Virus record (IMG/VR): IMGVR_UViG_2711768076_000006
Span: 1-9,481 of that record
Reading direction: 5' to 3' (one strand)
From: a virus
Lineage: Duplodnaviria > Heunggongvirae > Uroviricota > Caudoviricetes
DNA: 9,481 bases
Notes under the pieces: generated by a model
The model's database searches: none
Seen by the model: the letters and a program-made list of their open reading frames with translations, nothing else
What the model was told of the DNA's origin: nothing
Shown: positions 1,124 through 8,806 of the stretch, piece by piece
How positions within the stretch are numbered: position 1 is the first letter of the stretch
Layout of the letters: every line of letters begins with the position of its first letter
Program-made: the position numbers and the translations under genes

Positions 1124-1279
1124 TTACTCCTCAGGTTCGTAAGCTGTGAAGACAGCGACCTCCGTCTGGCCGGTTCGGATTCGTACCTCGCAGAGGTCTT
1201 TCCTCGTTACCAGTGCCGTCACTATGACGGTTAAACAGATGACGATCAGGGCGATTAACATCGCCTTTTGCTGCTTCAT
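1124..1279 (-). CDS. hokD: Hok/Gef-family type I toxin, 51 aa membrane peptide
   Basis: MKQQKAMLIALIVICLTVIVTALVTRKDLCEVRIRTGQTEVAVFTAYEPEE is a canonical Hok sequence and matches HokD/RelF as I recall it. AAGGAG lies 9 nt upstream of the ATG at 1279. Confidence 0.85.
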   Translation of the reverse strand: MKQQKAMLIALIVICLTVIVTALVTRKDLCEVRIRTGQTEVAVFTAYEPEE

Positions 1280-1336
1280 AGCCTGCTTCTCCTTGACCTT
1301 TCGGTCCGTAAGAGGCAATCTATATGTGACGAGCAT
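1124..1336 (-). CDS. mok: Mok reading frame (in-frame N-terminal extension of hok that couples hok translation)
   Basis: ATG at 1336 in frame with hok adds MLVTYRLPLTDRKVKEKQA, which resembles the N-terminus of chromosomal Mok peptides (mokC MLNTCRVPLTDRKVKEKRA from memory). Confidence 0.55.
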   Translation of the reverse strand: MLVTYRLPLTDRKVKEKQAMKQQKAMLIALIVICLTVIVTALVTRKDLCEVRIRTGQTEVAVFTAYEPEE

Positions 1337-1378
1337 ATAGGGGCCTCACTTCGATTTATAGTCGGGTGGGGCTTTTAT
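1315..1378 (+). ncRNA. sok: Putative Sok-type antisense RNA opposite the mok translation start
   Basis: Inference from hok/sok architecture. + strand TTGACC at 1293-1298 is a possible -35, but no good -10 hexamer follows at 16-19 bp spacing. Imperfect hairpin GCCTCAC (1343-1349) / GTGGGGC (1365-1371) is followed by TTTTAT. Boundaries are approximate. Confidence 0.3.
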
Positions 1379-1471
1379 CTATCTGCCGTTGGTGTTCATG
1401 CCCGAGGCAGATAGCCTCAAGCACCCGCAGCAATTCTACTTAACTCTGCCGTTACAGCAAACCGTTTTCGC

Positions 1472-2376: not shown

Positions 2377-2540
2377 AAAAAACTCCTTTTATTGGTTATC
2401 ATGAAATAAAATTATAAACACCACAAATAATATATATTATATCCAGATAAACTTATCCGACTTTACCTCGTGCATAGCTTGTTATTTAAAGTTAACAAAA
2501 TAAGGAAAATTATACGCATATTGAAGAGTATAAACCTTAC

Positions 2541-2568
2541 ATGTTGATTACATTTTTGTAATCAACAT
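2541..2568. promoter_or_regulatory. 12-bp perfect inverted repeat (ATGTTGATTACA-TTTT-TGTAATCAACAT), candidate operator upstream of the solute-binding-protein gene
   Basis: Seen directly in the sequence, about 170 bp upstream of the ATG at 2376 in the AT-rich region. A TATAAT hexamer lies between the repeat and the gene on the - strand (near 2505-2510). Confidence 0.4.
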
Positions 2569-2794
2569 CCTGTTTGGAATAGCCAGCCTTTAATGGATAA
2601 CTATTTCTGACAATGCAATGAGTATAATCAAGTCCATCTTCCACTGAGAATTAGAGGCGGCATGCTTTTTCCGGCTCTTGCCGGATATCCGTAATTGTCC
2701 ATAATCTGCAGATTTATACCTTCTGCATGACCTGTCAGCGAAAATTTGTCCGGTGTTTCTACGGGAATGACATCAAAAGTTACACGCACTCGCG

Positions 2795-3106
2795 TTACCG
2801 TGTAGACCTACTTTCCTGCACTTGCAAGATCACAGTGGTGTAACCGTAACAGGAATTTATTCTCTGGACCGGCAGTAAATCCCTGAGTGGCGTGGTTCCC
2901 ATATCAATTTCCCGCCAGGCAGCCTCCATTGCCAGCGTACAGGCTGGAGCCATGACCTGCCCTTTAAATCTGGCCCGACCATCCCACCGGACGTGTTCTT
3001 CTCCCCTGAACTTAGGTACAGTCATCTCCAGTGGCACAAAAGTGTCAGCGCCATGATTTTTGACCGTTATCGCGCTACGGATATTTTGTTGACTGGTGAA
3101 AATCAC
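2795..3106 (-). CDS. Hypothetical protein (103 aa), weak call, possibly a gene remnant
   Basis: Track ORF that starts with GTG and has no clear RBS; no family recognised. It is in the same frame as the DUF1627-like gene but separated from it by at least three stop codons. Confidence 0.2.
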   Translation of the reverse strand: MIFTSQQNIRSAITVKNHGADTFVPLEMTVPKFRGEEHVRWDGRARFKGQVMAPACTLAMEAAWREIDMGTTPLRDLLPVQRINSCYGYTTVILQVQESRSTR

Positions 3107-3235: not shown

Positions 3236-4033
3236 TCATTGCCCGGACTTCCGACAAATCCCGGCAACCATATCCCGGTGCTTGTTCAACTCCCGCAGCG
3301 CGGCGCAGACTCGCTCCCACTTCTGGACATGATTCTTCGCCCTACGCAGTTCGCGATTTGCCATATGCAGCGATGGCAAAATCAAATCATCTTCTCGCGT
3401 TGCAGTAAACGATGGCAGCGACTGCACAATGTCCGCCACAGTTTCTGTTTTAATATCTTCCTGTGTTGCATCTTTCTGTACCGGTAACGCAACACCGGCT
3501 GGCTGAGGAAAGGCTTTACCATCGGTTTCCGTTACCGATACGGCTTTCGGCTTTGCTGGTAAATTATCGTCCGGCATGCAGTAACGGAATTTACCGTTCT
3601 GATTTACGCGAATCAGACGCCCTTTGCTGATTGCCATTGCCAGCGTTGAAGCTACTTTGCGTGATGTGGTACCGAACAACGTAGCCAGTTCATCCGCCGT
3701 TTGTGGTCCGCGTTGTTCAATCGTCGCGGTTAAATCGCACTCTGAGATTTTCGCTACTGTTGCTGTGGTGGTTTCTTCCGGCAGCTCTGCCTGCGCTGGC
3801 TGTTCCTGCTGAACGTTGTTATCAGCCACACGCCAGGTGTACGCGCTTTTATCAACAAAACCAGCCTTTTTCAGTTCCCATAGTTCGTTAAGCACTTCTT
3901 CACGACTGACATCAAGTCGCGCCGCAAGTTCTATGGATGTGGCTTTTCCCATTGCTTTCAGTGCGTCAAAAACAGTCTCCATTAAATTTTTTTCCTGGTA
4001 AAAATTACTTTGTGATTCCTGGCTGGACGACAT
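3236..4033 (-). CDS. DUF1627-like prophage protein with an N-terminal winged-helix-like domain and an acidic linker
   Basis: 265 aa ORF directly downstream of the DnaC-like gene, the usual position in Rac-type prophages (ydaW position). The ATG at 4033 overlaps the DnaC-like 3' end by 29 nt; the alternative ATG at 3982 ([13 protein letters not shown]...) is also possible. Confidence 0.75.
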
Positions 4034-4751
4034 TCGGGCGCCAGCTTTCCCAGTTAAAACTCACCCAGCGTCCGCCGTTCATGGTCATGCGATCCATAAT
4101 CCGCTCACCGAGCAATGTTTTCATGGCCTCATAGTTCAGGTTTGTCAGCATTCCCACGCTACGCATCGACGCTGTCCGTCGATCAATAATCTGGTGCAGT
4201 ACTACCTGCTCGTTTTTCGTCTCGCGCTGAATGCCAATTTCATCAAGAACCAGCAGATCCACTTCGCACAGTTCCCGCAATAATTTTTCGCCTGACTGCC
4301 CGTCGTCATAGCTGGCATGCAGGGCACTCATAACATCAGCCACGGTAACCACAATCACTGCCTGACCGTCTTTCAGCAGGCGATTTCCGATAGCTGCCGC
4401 TAAATGGTTCTTCCCGGTACCAGGTTTTCCGCTGAACGCAAAATTTGTACACCCGGTCATCAGTTCATCGGCGATGGATTTCGCCTGGCTTAACGCGTAT
4501 CGCTGGCCGTCGTTCTGCACCTGGTAATTTGCAAACGAGCATTTACGATGCAACGGCTGGATGCCTGAGCGATTCAGAATTTTTTCCACCCGCAACTGAC
4601 GATTCAGGCGGTTGATCTCCTCGCTACGTTTTCGCCCTTCTGCAAGCTGCCACTCTCGCCACTCGTCCACTGTCCGGCACGGCGCGGTTACATGCTGCGG
4701 AGTCAGCTTACGGATACGTTCAAGAACACCGCCTGTCGCAATATTTTTCAC
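4005..4751 (-). CDS. DnaC-like replicative helicase loader (AAA+ ATPase), YdaV-like
   Basis: 248 aa with Walker [16 protein letters not shown] and Walker [12 protein letters not shown] start with GGGGG 9 nt upstream; begins 7 nt after the O-like stop. Confidence 0.9.
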
Positions 4752-4757
4752 AGTTCG

Positions 4758-5723
4758 TTACCCCCTAAACCCCGGCGGAATTTCGGTGTCTGGTTCAGAA
4801 ATATGATTCACACAACGCTGTACAGGTGAACGCCCCAGGCGGATGACCAGTTCGTCCCATTTTTCGCGGAGCTTTGACGGGCTCATGATGTTTTTTACCC
4901 AGAATGGATCCCGCTGTACCCGCCCAAACATTTCGCAAATTTGTCTGTGAGTTCTGCCATCCAGCATCCGCATTGTGCGCACATCATTGGCCCATGCGGT
5001 CCAGTTTGGTTCTTTCGGTCGCGAGATCTCGCCATCATCGCTGGCAGCCTGCTCGTAAAGACTCACAATTCGTCCCCAGATCCACTGTGCGCACGCCAAA
5101 TCTTCCTGACTTCCCCACTGGCGTTTTTTCGCACTGAACACAACCGCGTCAGGGTGTCGGGTTAAAAAATCCTGTTCAGCCGTCTGCGGGTCCGGTTGCG
5201 AAGCTTCCGGACGAGAAGTGTTTTTATTCTCTGTAGTAATCTCTGTTGTATTCTCTGTAAGATCATCAGGCCATTTTGACCCGATGACATTGGGTCGTTT
5301 TGAACCAATGGAGCGTGCCATTTTGACCTCTTCCATCGTGTCATTTTGACCTGATGGAGCGGTGCATTTTGACCTGATGGATTCGCTCACTTTGCCACCA
5401 TCTAAAAGCTCACTCTCGTAATTAATCGTGTAAAAATTAGTCATATCACGCTTTGATTTGTTGAGCTTTTCACAACGCAAAAGCCCCAGCGTTTTCAGAC
5501 TTGCAAATGCGCGTTTTAACGTTGACTCTGACCAGAACGGGAACTGTTCCAGCCATTGTTCTGTTGTGTTATAAATCCAGCGAACACCATCACATTCCAT
5601 GCCGGAACCGGTATCTCTCAACCAGTAATGCAGCTGCTGCAACACGATGGCTTCGTTCAGACCAATTTTCATCGCCAGCTGCGTGTTTATAACCAGCGGG
5701 CGTTCAGCAAAAAGGAGCTTCAT
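4758..5723 (-). CDS. Phage replication initiator (replisome organizer, lambda O-like / YdaU-like)
   Basis: 321 aa. Lies immediately upstream of the DnaC-like gene, and the origin iterons are inside its coding sequence, as with lambda O. Confidence 0.88.
   Translation of the reverse strand: MKLLFAERPLVINTQLAMKIGLNEAIVLQQLHYWLRDTGSGMECDGVRWIYNTTEQWLEQFPFWSESTLKRAFASLKTLGLLRCEKLNKSKRDMTNFYTINYESELLDGGKVSESIRSKCTAPSGQNDTMEEVKMARSIGSKRPNVIGSKWPDDLTENTTEITTENKNTSRPEASQPDPQTAEQDFLTRHPDAVVFSAKKRQWGSQEDLACAQWIWGRIVSLYEQAASDDGEISRPKEPNWTAWANDVRTMRMLDGRTHRQICEMFGRVQRDPFWVKNIMSPSKLREKWDELVIRLGRSPVQRCVNHISEPDTEIPPGFRG
5227..5396. repeat. Probable prophage replication origin: six iterons at 23-bp periodicity plus an adjacent AT-rich block with three 12-bp repeats
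   Basis: CATTTTGACC-type repeats start at 5272, 5296, 5319, 5342, 5365 and 5388 (the second and last are degenerate). TCTCTGT repeats at 5228, 5240 and 5252. All lie inside the O-like gene. Confidence 0.7.
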
Positions 5724-5744: not shown

Positions 5745-6170
5745 TCAATGCGCCACCACGGCATTTCCCGCCGGACCACCACGATTCATCTGATTGAAAC
5801 CAGCAATTACCACCGCGACAAGTTCATCAGCGTCTCTCACCAGTCGTTCATGCGTATCCACCAGTTCCCGAAAATAATCGGAACTGTGGCTGCGCATCCA
5901 GGCCACCAGCGGAGGTGGCATTGCCTTTTCGATCGCTGGTAACAAAGCCTGAATTTTTTTAACCGCATCAGGGGTGTCTTTCTCCACCCAGCGGAAAATT
6001 TTCTGAGTATTGCGAGCCAGGGCTTCCGGATGGCTGTCGTCATACAGTTCCGGGAATGTCATACCCAGCTCAAAATAAGCCCGGGTTATTTCAGCTGCCG
6101 GAACTTTTTCACCGTCCGGACGCGCCCAGGCATTCATCGCCATGCGGATGTGTTCATGCTTGATTTTCAT
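5745..6170 (-). CDS. ydaT: YdaT-like protein (toxic partner of the RacR-controlled ydaS-ydaT operon)
   Basis: 141 aa. AAGAGG 10 nt upstream of the ATG; overlaps the ydaS-like 3' end by 17 nt. Position and size match Rac ydaT (about 140 aa). Confidence 0.8.
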   Translation of the reverse strand: MKIKHEHIRMAMNAWARPDGEKVPAAEITRAYFELGMTFPELYDDSHPEALARNTQKIFRWVEKDTPDAVKKIQALLPAIEKAMPPPLVAWMRSHSSDYFRELVDTHERLVRDADELVAVVIAGFNQMNRGGPAGNAVVAH

Positions 6171-6477
6171 GAATCATTTGCCTCTTGATGCTTCGGGTAT
6201 GATCGTTTTTGTCATTTGGTTGCTTCATCGACATATTCTGCGAATAACATGACGAACGTCGTAAGTATGACCAGTCAACATCAGGACGAAGTTCTTCACA
6301 CAGGACTCCACCTTTTGTTGCTCGTTCAATCGCTGGACATCTCTCGGCAGGCAACCGACGTACACCTTTGATCCATTGATTTACGCTTGGAGGCGATACC
6401 CCTAAAAGTCTGGCCATTGCTGATTGCCCACCAACAACAGCACAAGCTCGTTTGAATGAATAGTTCTCTTTTTTCAT
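6154..6477 (-). CDS. ydaS: YdaS-like Cro/HTH-type DNA-binding protein
   Basis: Start taken at ATG 6477 (MKKENYSFKRACAVVGGQSAMARLLGVSPPSVNQWIKG...), with GGAG 9 nt upstream. Divergent from the repressor, with operators in the shared intergenic region. Confidence 0.8.
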   Translation of the reverse strand: MKKENYSFKRACAVVGGQSAMARLLGVSPPSVNQWIKGVRRLPAERCPAIERATKGGVLCEELRPDVDWSYLRRSSCYSQNMSMKQPNDKNDHTRSIKRQMIHENQA

Positions 6478-6499
6478 CGAATGAACTCCAAAAAACACA

Positions 6500-6572
6500 C
6501 AATGATATTAGGCGGCGCCTAATATCATTGTCAATAGGCTATGCCTAACAACCAAGAGGTAGGGATTGCCTA
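6500..6572. promoter_or_regulatory. Right-operator-like region: three TAGGC-N3-GCCTA palindromes in the racR/ydaS divergent promoter region
   Basis: Cores at 6509-6521 (inside a 14+3+14 bp perfect palindrome, 6500-6530), 6535-6547, and 6560-6572 (TAGGG variant). Centre-to-centre spacing is 26 and 25 bp. Confidence 0.6.
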
Positions 6573-6601
6573 ATGCAATGCACATAGGAGACTATTAAGC
6601 A

Positions 6602-7078
6602 ATGCTTAGTGGTAAAGACTTAGGCCGAGCGATAGAGCAGGCCATTAATAAAAAAATTGCATCAGGAGCCGTCAAATCAAAGGCGGAGATCGCACGCCAT
6701 TTCAAAGTCCAACCACCATCAATCCATGACTGGATTAAGAAAGGTTCGATAAGTAAAGATAAACTTCCAGAACTATGGCGTTTCTTTTCTGATGTGGTTG
6801 GTCCAGAGCATTGGGGGCTTAACGAATACCCCATACCAACCCCTTCCTGCTCAGATTCAAAAAGAGAACTTTTAGACATAAACAGCCTTTATCAAGCCGC
6901 TTCTGATGAAAAAAGAGCAATTGTAGCCTTCCTCTTATCTGGAAATGCTGCGGAGCCTGGTTGGGTTGATTATGACGTTCGCGCCTACATTACTGCAATG
7001 GAAATGAAGGTAAGTAACTATCTGAAAAATCAAGAATCAGAACGGAAAAGCCAGAACATCACCAAAACGGGAACTTAA
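6602..7078 (+). CDS. racR: Prophage repressor, RacR-like
   Basis: 158 aa (MLSGKDLGRAIEQAINKK...), the same length as Rac RacR. AGGAG upstream. Flanked on both sides by the same operator palindrome family. Confidence 0.82.
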   Translation: MLSGKDLGRAIEQAINKKIASGAVKSKAEIARHFKVQPPSIHDWIKKGSISKDKLPELWRFFSDVVGPEHWGLNEYPIPTPSCSDSKRELLDINSLYQAASDEKRAIVAFLLSGNAAEPGWVDYDVRAYITAMEMKVSNYLKNQESERKSQNITKTGT

Positions 7079-7175
7079 ACTTATATGGTCCGACGGGAAG
7101 CACCTAGATCCCGTTATTTAGCTCCCATTACCTCTTCCACATACCATCGCCTATTAGGTTGTGCGCAAAAGGCAT

Positions 7176-7213
7176 TAGGCATAGCCTATTGACAAGCAAT
7201 TAGGCATTACCTA
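7176..7213. promoter_or_regulatory. Left-operator-like region: two TAGGC-N3-(G/A)CCTA sites downstream of racR, upstream of the + strand early operon
   Basis: Cores at 7176-7188 and 7201-7213, 25 bp apart. The 21-mer at 7175-7195 is the exact reverse complement of 6528-6548. Confidence 0.5.
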
Positions 7214-7398
7214 TAGTTTTCTCATACCAACCCACCCCGCCCCACAGAATGCAGGGCAATACTTTGAGTTACCAGGCAGTGGTCAGGGGGTAAGTAGCCA
7301 GCCCGAGGCGTAAGAACATGACGGCAGGGTTCAACTTTAATAACTATGCAGCAGGTTTTTGTTCCGCTACCCCGGCGTTAAGGGGAAATGAGGTCAGC

Positions 7399-8390: not shown

Positions 8391-8448
8391 TTTCTGGTGA
8401 CTTTTGGCGGTATCAGTTCTACTCCGTGACTGCTCTGCCGCCCTTTTT
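8391..8448 (+). ncRNA. dicF: DicF small RNA (antisense inhibitor of ftsZ translation) with its 3' terminator
   Basis: TTTCTGGTGACTTTTGGCGGTATCAGTTCTACTCCGTGACTGCTCTGCCGCCC plus a T-run closely matches the K-12 DicF sequence as I recall it. It sits immediately upstream of dicB as in Qin. Confidence 0.7.
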
Positions 8449-8617: not shown

Positions 8618-8806
8618 ATGGAAACGTTATTACCAAACGTTAATACGTCTGAAGGTTGTTTTGAAATTGGTGTCACTATCAGTAACCCTGTATTTACTGA
8701 AGATGCCATTAACAAGAGAAAACACGAACGGGAGTTATTAAATAAAATATGCATTCTTTCAATGCTGGCCCGTTTACGTCCGACACAAAAAGGATGCTGG
8801 CAATGA
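8618..8806 (+). CDS. dicB: Cell division inhibitor DicB (62 aa)
   Basis: METLLPNVNTSEGCFEIGVTISNPVFTEDAINKRK... matches DicB from memory. GAGGA upstream of the ATG at 8618. Confidence 0.85.
   Translation: METLLPNVNTSEGCFEIGVTISNPVFTEDAINKRKHERELLNKICILSMLARLRPTQKGCWQ

Follow-up and report, generated by a model that had tools for sequence, protein, structure and literature searches.

A Rac-type immunity region with a CP-933P-type YdaT in an Escherichia coli prophage: ydaS and ydaT as likely Cro and CII equivalents

Results and Discussion

We analyzed a 9,481-bp stretch of DNA (hereafter, the window) and found that its ydaS-ydaT gene pair very probably represents the cro and cII equivalents of a Rac-like lambdoid immunity region, serving a lysis/lysogeny switch. 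The racR repressor gene is divergent from ydaS, which encodes a Cro-like single-domain HTH protein and is the first gene of the rightward operon. The second gene, ydaT, belongs to the YdaT (CII-like) family and has a YdaT-box at the ydaS/ydaT junction. Genes for an O-like protein with iterons and for a P/DnaC-like protein lie directly downstream in the same operon. This gene order (repressor / cro-like, cII-like, O with iterons, P-like) is the early-right layout of lambda in both function and orientation. The original prediction, made from the sequence alone, had described a minus-strand pair of ydaS-like and ydaT-like genes with a 17-nt overlap (6154-6170), standing first in the operon divergent from the repressor, and both observations are borne out. 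The coordinates of all features are collected in Table 1.

The pair consists of well-studied Cro-like and CII-like regulators that are already known and annotated, and is thus a real but ordinary finding: publications already cover the module and both protein families together with the structures, the operators and the source of toxicity, and the sequence is annotated in RefSeq genomes. What is mildly new is confined to the hybrid make-up of the locus, in which RacR, YdaS and operators of the Rac type are combined with a YdaT of the CP-933P type, ydaS reads through across the YdaT-box, and the -35 element of the PRE-like promoter is altered.

Table 1. Features of the window (positions in the 9,481-bp stretch)
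Feature	Position	Strand	Description
hokD-type gene	1124..1279	-	type I toxin gene, 51 aa
sok antitoxin RNA	1277..1426		Rfam match, 103.9 bits
paa	1618..2376	-	AcfC-family adhesin; SBP_bac_11 fold, 1.5e-34
fimbrial pseudogene	2537..3070	-	frameshifted; adjacent to paa
ydaV	4005..4751	-	DnaC/IstB-like helicase-loader ATPase (P equivalent); PF01695 3.8e-20 and DnaA ATPase domain; named ydaV by PGAP
O-like replication initiator	4758..5723	-	PHROG 391 'replication initiation O-like', 1.1e-96
iterons	5264..5379		five tandem 23-bp repeats within the O-like gene; core CATTTTGACC
ydaT	5745..6170	-	CII-like tetrameric POU-type HTH activator, 141 aa, CP-933P/3C4R clade; PF06254, PHROG 163
ydaS	6154..6477	-	Cro-like HTH regulator, 107 aa; PF15943, P22_Cro, HTH_3, PHROG 35
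YdaT-box	6160..6177	-	ATGATTCATGAAAATCAA; ydaT start codon (6170) in the 6-nt spacer
PracR4 counterpart (PRE equivalent)	6355..6387	+	putative; inside ydaS; -35 CCGACG (6355-6360), conserved -10 TACGCT (6382-6387)
PydaST promoter (PR equivalent)	6534..6505	-	TTGACA-18-TAATAT, 10/12 match to sigma-70; in the 124-bp intergenic region
OR-like operator cluster	6508..6573	.	TTAGGC-n3-GCCTAA inverted repeats 6508-6522 (perfect), 6534-6548, 6559-6573; spacing 26 and 25 bp
inverted repeat TTAAGC-AAT-GCTTAG	6591..6613	.	racR ATG (6602) in the spacer; identical to K-12 across the stretch
racR	6602..7078	+	prophage maintenance repressor, functional analogue of lambda CI; 158 aa; named racR by PGAP
OL/PL-like element	7175..7217	+	operator-like repeats 7175-7189, 7200-7214; promoter match TTGACA-17-TATAGT (7189-7217)
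DicF sRNA	8392..8443	+	Rfam, 71.5 bits
dicB	8618..8806	+	cell-division inhibitor

Host prophage and replication genes

The chromosomes of E. coli ESBL 15 and AMSHJX01 match the window with 100% identity over its full length. The PGAP calls in a 100%-identical genome correspond to the same ORFs as in the window and follow the order DUF968, hokD, paa adhesin, fimbrial pseudogene, DUF1627, ydaV, hypothetical (O-like) protein, 'toxin YdaT family protein', HTH protein, racR, DUF1391, dicB, exonuclease, xis and int, with rspB adjoining. Outside the window, the same element contains Q, RusA, tRNAs, the holin, lysozyme and Rz-type lysis genes, the terminase, portal, capsid and tail genes, and T3SS effector cargo, with a truncated ydfJ marking its end. 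The host element thus possesses int/xis and Q as well as genes for lysis, terminase, head and tail, and is apparently a structurally complete lambdoid prophage of E. coli. By its gene content, the window forms the immunity/replication region of this Rac-like element. In NZ_CP041678.1 (2364000-2405000), the prophage occupies the rspB/ydfJ (Qin) site and not ttcA, where the defective Rac prophage of K-12 resides; four tRNA genes and T3SS effector genes (nleC, a HECT-type E3 ligase and an nleG fragment) are located at its far end.

The 321-aa O-like protein has no Pfam match, and in K-12 Rac the DUF1376 protein YdaU is found instead; ydaV lies downstream in both prophages. The iterons within the O-like gene form the direct-repeat family D1 with a 23-24 bp spacing, and, by comparison with the lambda ori located within O, they probably constitute the prophage origin of replication. 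The presence of an O-like gene with iterons and a DnaC-like gene downstream of the pair fits its assignment as Cro and CII equivalents.

The switch could also be a decaying, non-functional remnant in a cryptic prophage, without a present role. Rac of K-12 is defective, as is CP-933P, and a fimbrial pseudogene is found nearby in the window. However, none of the three regulator ORFs is disrupted, the known cis elements are all conserved (the YdaT-box to the base), and the host prophage looks complete. Moreover, at least 80% of the 1.6-kb racR-ydaS-ydaT block is present in ∼529 of 5,426 complete E. coli genomes, and a part of it in ∼3,500. We regard a decaying remnant as very improbable.

RacR and its operators

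The RacR protein is 89% identical to RacR of K-12. In the profile search it matched no Pfam domain, S24 peptidase included, and it thus differs from lambda CI both in the lack of detectable similarity and in the lack of a match to the S24 autopeptidase domain. The whole window was searched with the pattern TTAGGC-n3-GCCTAA, chance being estimated with 200 shuffles. This search identified five RacR-operator-like sites against 0.25 expected by chance, and none of the 200 shuffles reached five; a search with a 4-nt spacer (TAGGC-N4-GCCTA) found no sites in the window, the real spacer being 3 nt. The sites agree with the consensus T/ATAGGC-n3-GCCTAT/A, footprinted or assigned as RacR operators in K-12 (PMC9638921), and K-12 Rac possesses the same five sites, three at OR and two at OL. 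Three of the window sites are located in the 124-bp racR-ydaS intergenic region, together with the repeat overlapping the racR start codon, whose counterpart in K-12 is known as RacR 'operator 3' or a C-protein off-target site (PMC9638921).

The intergenic region also contains PydaST, which is overlapped by the first operator (O1), while the second (O2) reaches into it at the first base of the -35 hexamer. The DNA alignment demonstrates that the hexamers and spacing of this promoter are the same as in K-12, where PydaST is very strong, produces a bicistronic ydaS-ydaT mRNA and is silenced by RacR and YdaS (PMC11879457). Direct repressor control of ydaS-ydaT, as originally proposed, is therefore almost certain, since both the promoter hexamers and the operators match elements validated in K-12 with footprints and reporter assays (PMC9638921, PMC11879457).

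The remaining two sites are interleaved with a near-consensus plus-strand promoter downstream of racR, facing the DUF1391-DicF-dicB-exo-xis-int genes. An equivalent pair of sites is found downstream of racR in K-12 (positions 4630-4669 of the Rac segment). By analogy with lambda, which likewise has tripartite operators over PR/PRM-type promoters and a further set of operators at a PL-like promoter, this element looks like the OL/PL equivalent driving these genes. We found no discussion of this operator pair in the consulted portions of the Rac switch literature.

Operator O1 is embedded in a 33-nt perfect palindrome (6499-6531; ACAATGATATTAGGCG-C-CGCCTAATATCATTGT), of which the core makes up only 15 bp, whereas O1 of K-12 is not palindromic beyond the core. 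The terminator scan flagged this palindrome because a T-run follows it on the minus strand. The resulting terminator-like match at 6531..6499 was rejected as a ydaST terminator, as it is the O1 palindrome itself and is located at or upstream of the expected PydaST start.

YdaS and YdaT regulators

The ydaS gene lies in an ORF at 6154-6498 (-) with an internal ATG at 6477, preceded by GGAG 9 nt upstream. Its product is 86% identical to K-12 YdaS and matches the Pfam families YdaS_toxin (PF15943, E = 9.8e-30), P22_Cro (PF14549, 1.5e-8) and HTH_3, as well as phrog_35 ('transcriptional repressor'); its PDB matches are Cro proteins (3BD1, 9e-11; 5W8Y, 1e-8). YdaT matches YdaT_toxin (PF06254, E = 2.4e-9) and PHROG 163 ('CII-like transcriptional activator', 1.5e-43). 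Its closest relatives of known structure are 3C4R (1.3e-82, 89% identity) and YdaT of CP-933P, 8BT1 (1.9e-74, 79% identity), while it is only 31% identical to YdaT of K-12. The N-terminal DNA-binding half is almost unchanged relative to the crystallized 8BT1, with the RNTQKIFRW stretch unaltered; this stretch aligns with the DNA-contact residues H56/R57 of K-12 YdaT (PMC9986795).

The Pfam names 'Bacterial toxin YdaS/YdaT', the PGAP name 'toxin YdaT family protein' and the arrangement of two small overlapping genes with the HTH protein first suggest a classical toxin-antitoxin system of type II, in which YdaS would be the antitoxin and YdaT the toxin. However, these names stem from a computational toxin-antitoxin prediction (RASTA) that was not confirmed by experiment (cited in PMC5917428, PMC9986795, PMC8630535). 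YdaT forms a tetramer of POU-like HTH fold that binds DNA at a defined operator (PMC9986795), co-expression of YdaS leaves the toxicity of K-12 YdaT unchanged (PMC11014345), and repression is exerted by a third protein, RacR, and not by an antitoxin-toxin complex (PMC5700373). A type II pair is thus barely credible and was rejected on the published evidence (PMC8630535, PMC11014345, PMC5917428), the architecture of two small genes being the part of it that is seen in the sequence. The database names of YdaS and YdaT as toxins are legacy mis-annotations of phage regulators of the Cro/CII type, and the RefSeq label of K-12 YdaT already reads 'DNA binding transcriptional activator'.

In K-12, ydaS and ydaT are separated by a 22-nt gap. 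They overlap by 17 nt in the window because the TGA stop codon of K-12 ydaS is replaced by CGA, next to a 12-nt in-frame deletion. As a result, ydaS extends 13 codons further into ydaT, and its product is 9 aa longer than YdaS of K-12.

YdaT-box and the PRE-like promoter

The best match in the window to the high-affinity OM site of CP-933P, TTGATT-N6-AATCAA, which is likewise located at the ydaS/ydaT junction of that prophage (PMC9986795), is the YdaT-box at the ydaT start, with one mismatch. All 18 of its bases are identical to the DNase-footprinted YdaT-box of K-12, which also contains the ydaT ATG in its spacer (PMC11879457). Due to the loss of the ydaS stop codon, the 3' end of ydaS and the start of ydaT both fall inside the box; under the rather unlikely module-swap proposal considered below, bound YdaT could thereby roadblock its own expression or couple it translationally.

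In K-12, box-bound YdaT activates PracR4, a reverse promoter within ydaS, up to 29-fold (PMC11879457). The window has a counterpart of this promoter with a conserved -10 element and two substitutions in the -35 element (CCGACG versus TTGACG in K-12; hexamers per PMC11879457), which might make it weaker. In addition, its distance to the box is 12 bp shorter than in K-12. Given both differences, the YdaT-dependent activation of the repressor could be weaker or proceed from another start site.

A YdaT half-site, TTGATT (6376-6381), abuts the -10 TACGCT of the PracR4 counterpart in the window and in K-12 alike. It could serve as a secondary contact for the YdaT tetramer, although a single hexamer carries no statistical weight. 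Another candidate for the PRE, a plus-strand promoter match (9/12) that occupies 6209-6237 at ∼32 bp from the YdaT-box, was retained as a possibility only, such matches being no more frequent than by chance (3 matches versus 2.1 expected).

Mosaic structure of the locus

In the DNA alignment with K-12 Rac (b1356-b1358), near-identity extends from racR through ydaS and the YdaT-box into the first ∼10 codons of ydaT (MKIKHEHI) and then collapses. Conversely, deposited E. coli phages, induced or isolated, carry ∼90%-identical ydaT genes annotated as 'activator protein cII' beside various cro/repressor types, e.g. DicC, and their homology with the window stops at ∼6176, i.e. at the YdaT-box. Because homology ends at the box and the first ydaT codons, these appear to act as a joint between exchangeable modules. 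At the sequence level, the locus is a mosaic of Rac-type RacR and YdaS (89% and 86% identity) and a CP-933P-type YdaT (31% identical to K-12 but 79-89% to the crystallized type). It differs from the CP-933P (Sp12) paaR2/ydaS-ydaT locus of E. coli O157:H7 in three respects: the repressor there is PaaR2 and not RacR, no paaA2-parE2 toxin-antitoxin genes follow the repressor in the window, and the window YdaS is of the Rac type, to which YdaS of CP-933P is reported to be only 26% identical (PMC8630535).

We tentatively considered, as a rather unlikely proposal, a natural module swap, in which a CP-933P-clade YdaT was joined to Rac-type RacR, YdaS and operators exactly at the shared YdaT-box and the first ∼10 codons. 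If the properties of the clade hold, such a swap would keep the CII-like feedback on the repressor and dispense with both the rcsA off-target lethality and the binding of YdaT at the racR-ydaS intergenic region, and the YdaT-box would be a conserved recombination joint as well as an autoregulatory node. We found no test of such a combination of Rac-type RacR/YdaS with a CP-933P-type YdaT in the consulted papers on Rac and CP-933P.

Model of the RacR/YdaS/YdaT switch

The Cro/CII-equivalent reading was proposed by Casjens and Jobling (PMC5917428). PaaR2, YdaS and YdaT of CP-933P were later shown to act as analogues of CI, Cro and CII, with bistability (PMC8630535), roles of the same type were demonstrated for K-12 Rac (PMC9638921, PMC11014345, PMC11879457), and the structure of YdaT was determined as a POU-like HTH tetramer with the OM/OL/OR operator (PMC9986795). 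For the locus studied here, gene identities, architecture and the presence and conservation of cis elements were seen in the sequence, whereas DNA binding, activation and bistability come from the literature on close homologues; we infer by analogy that the hybrid set of alleles behaves like them.

In the lysogen, RacR as the CI analogue would occupy the TTAGGC-n3-GCCTAA operators that cover and flank the strong PydaST promoter, as well as the second operator pair at the PL-like promoter, and would keep both the rightward operon (ydaS-ydaT-O-ydaV and further genes) and the leftward early operon silent. When RacR drops, PydaST is expected to fire. YdaS would then compete for the same intergenic operators and favor excision and lytic development, while the YdaT tetramer, bound to the YdaT-box at its own start codon, would switch on the reverse PRE-like promoter and thereby supply more repressor. 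The two actions together would constitute a bistable switch. Any toxicity would be a side effect of phage transcription factors being expressed ectopically or out of balance, and not the purpose of the module.

The analogy with lambda, whose CII activator acts on a reverse promoter as YdaT is proposed to do, is imperfect. YdaT is a POU-like tetramer that recognizes an inverted repeat, in contrast to the TTGC-N6-TTGC direct repeat in lambda, and YdaS of K-12 reportedly does not repress racR, unlike Cro acting on cI (PMC9638921). Furthermore, YdaT of Rac binds the repressor-cro intergenic region, whereas YdaT of CP-933P does not (PMC11879457), and by analogy this branch of YdaT action may be absent in the window locus.

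Toxicity of the module

The main competing explanation is a repressor-gated toxic module, in which YdaS and/or YdaT mainly kill or arrest the host upon the loss of RacR and thus make the repressor and the prophage addictive. The original prediction relied on the essentiality of racR in Rac, and K-12 essentiality was indeed attributed to the toxicity of YdaS/T (PMC5700373, PMC5700377): depletion of RacR leads to elevated ydaS-ydaT expression, filamentation and death (PMC5700373, PMC5700377, bioRxiv 10.64898/2026.09.06.749655). The high identity of RacR and YdaS to their K-12 orthologs and the conserved control region speak for such a module, and the fact that two groups still call K-12 YdaS/T toxins (PMC5700377; bioRxiv 10.64898/2026.09.06.749655) counts against a reading of the pair as a switch only.

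However, later work found that it is YdaT and not YdaS that lowers the viability of K-12 (PMC11014345), through the off-target activation of the host rcsA promoter, which disturbs the Rcs regulon and cell division (PMC11879457). By its 31% identity and its place in the CP-933P clade, the window YdaT does not qualify as an ortholog of this toxic rcsA-activating protein. No toxicity was detected for YdaT of CP-933P (PMC8630535), which activates the YdaT-box promoter but not rcsA (PMC11879457), and the extrapolation of K-12 toxicity to the window ydaT is therefore weak. For YdaS, the literature is in conflict, the K-12 protein being described as non-toxic (PMC11014345) and as toxic (PMC5700373). 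Besides, the pair resides in a complete phage early region, and lambda CII is also toxic if overproduced, yet is no toxin (PMC5917428). A dedicated toxic module is thus improbable.

The interpretation originally offered stands in part. The RacR/YdaS/YdaT arrangement and the direct control by RacR are upheld. The step from the same arrangement to a repressor-gated toxic module is weakly supported for this allele and gives way to the Cro/CII equivalence (PMC5917428, PMC8630535, PMC9986795, PMC11879457), with YdaT being of the CP-933P/3C4R type. The description of the mechanism as poorly defined is outdated, as a crystal structure, a footprinted operator, an activated PRE-like promoter and the host target rcsA have been published. 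Since the prophage looks complete, the loss of its repressor would be harmful through ordinary prophage induction, whatever YdaS and YdaT do. The natural hybrid could conveniently separate the essentiality of RacR due to the YdaT allele from that due to plain prophage induction in E. coli.

Other elements of the window

A genuine toxin-antitoxin locus within the prophage of ydaST is hokD/sok at 1124-1426 (-), composed of the hokD-type gene and the sok RNA. The paa gene and the adjacent fimbrial pseudogene represent inserted cargo, flanked by the replication genes on one side and the nin/Q region on the other. In the leftward early operon, DicF is followed by dicB; these are additional repressor-controlled and potentially growth-inhibiting functions besides ydaST.
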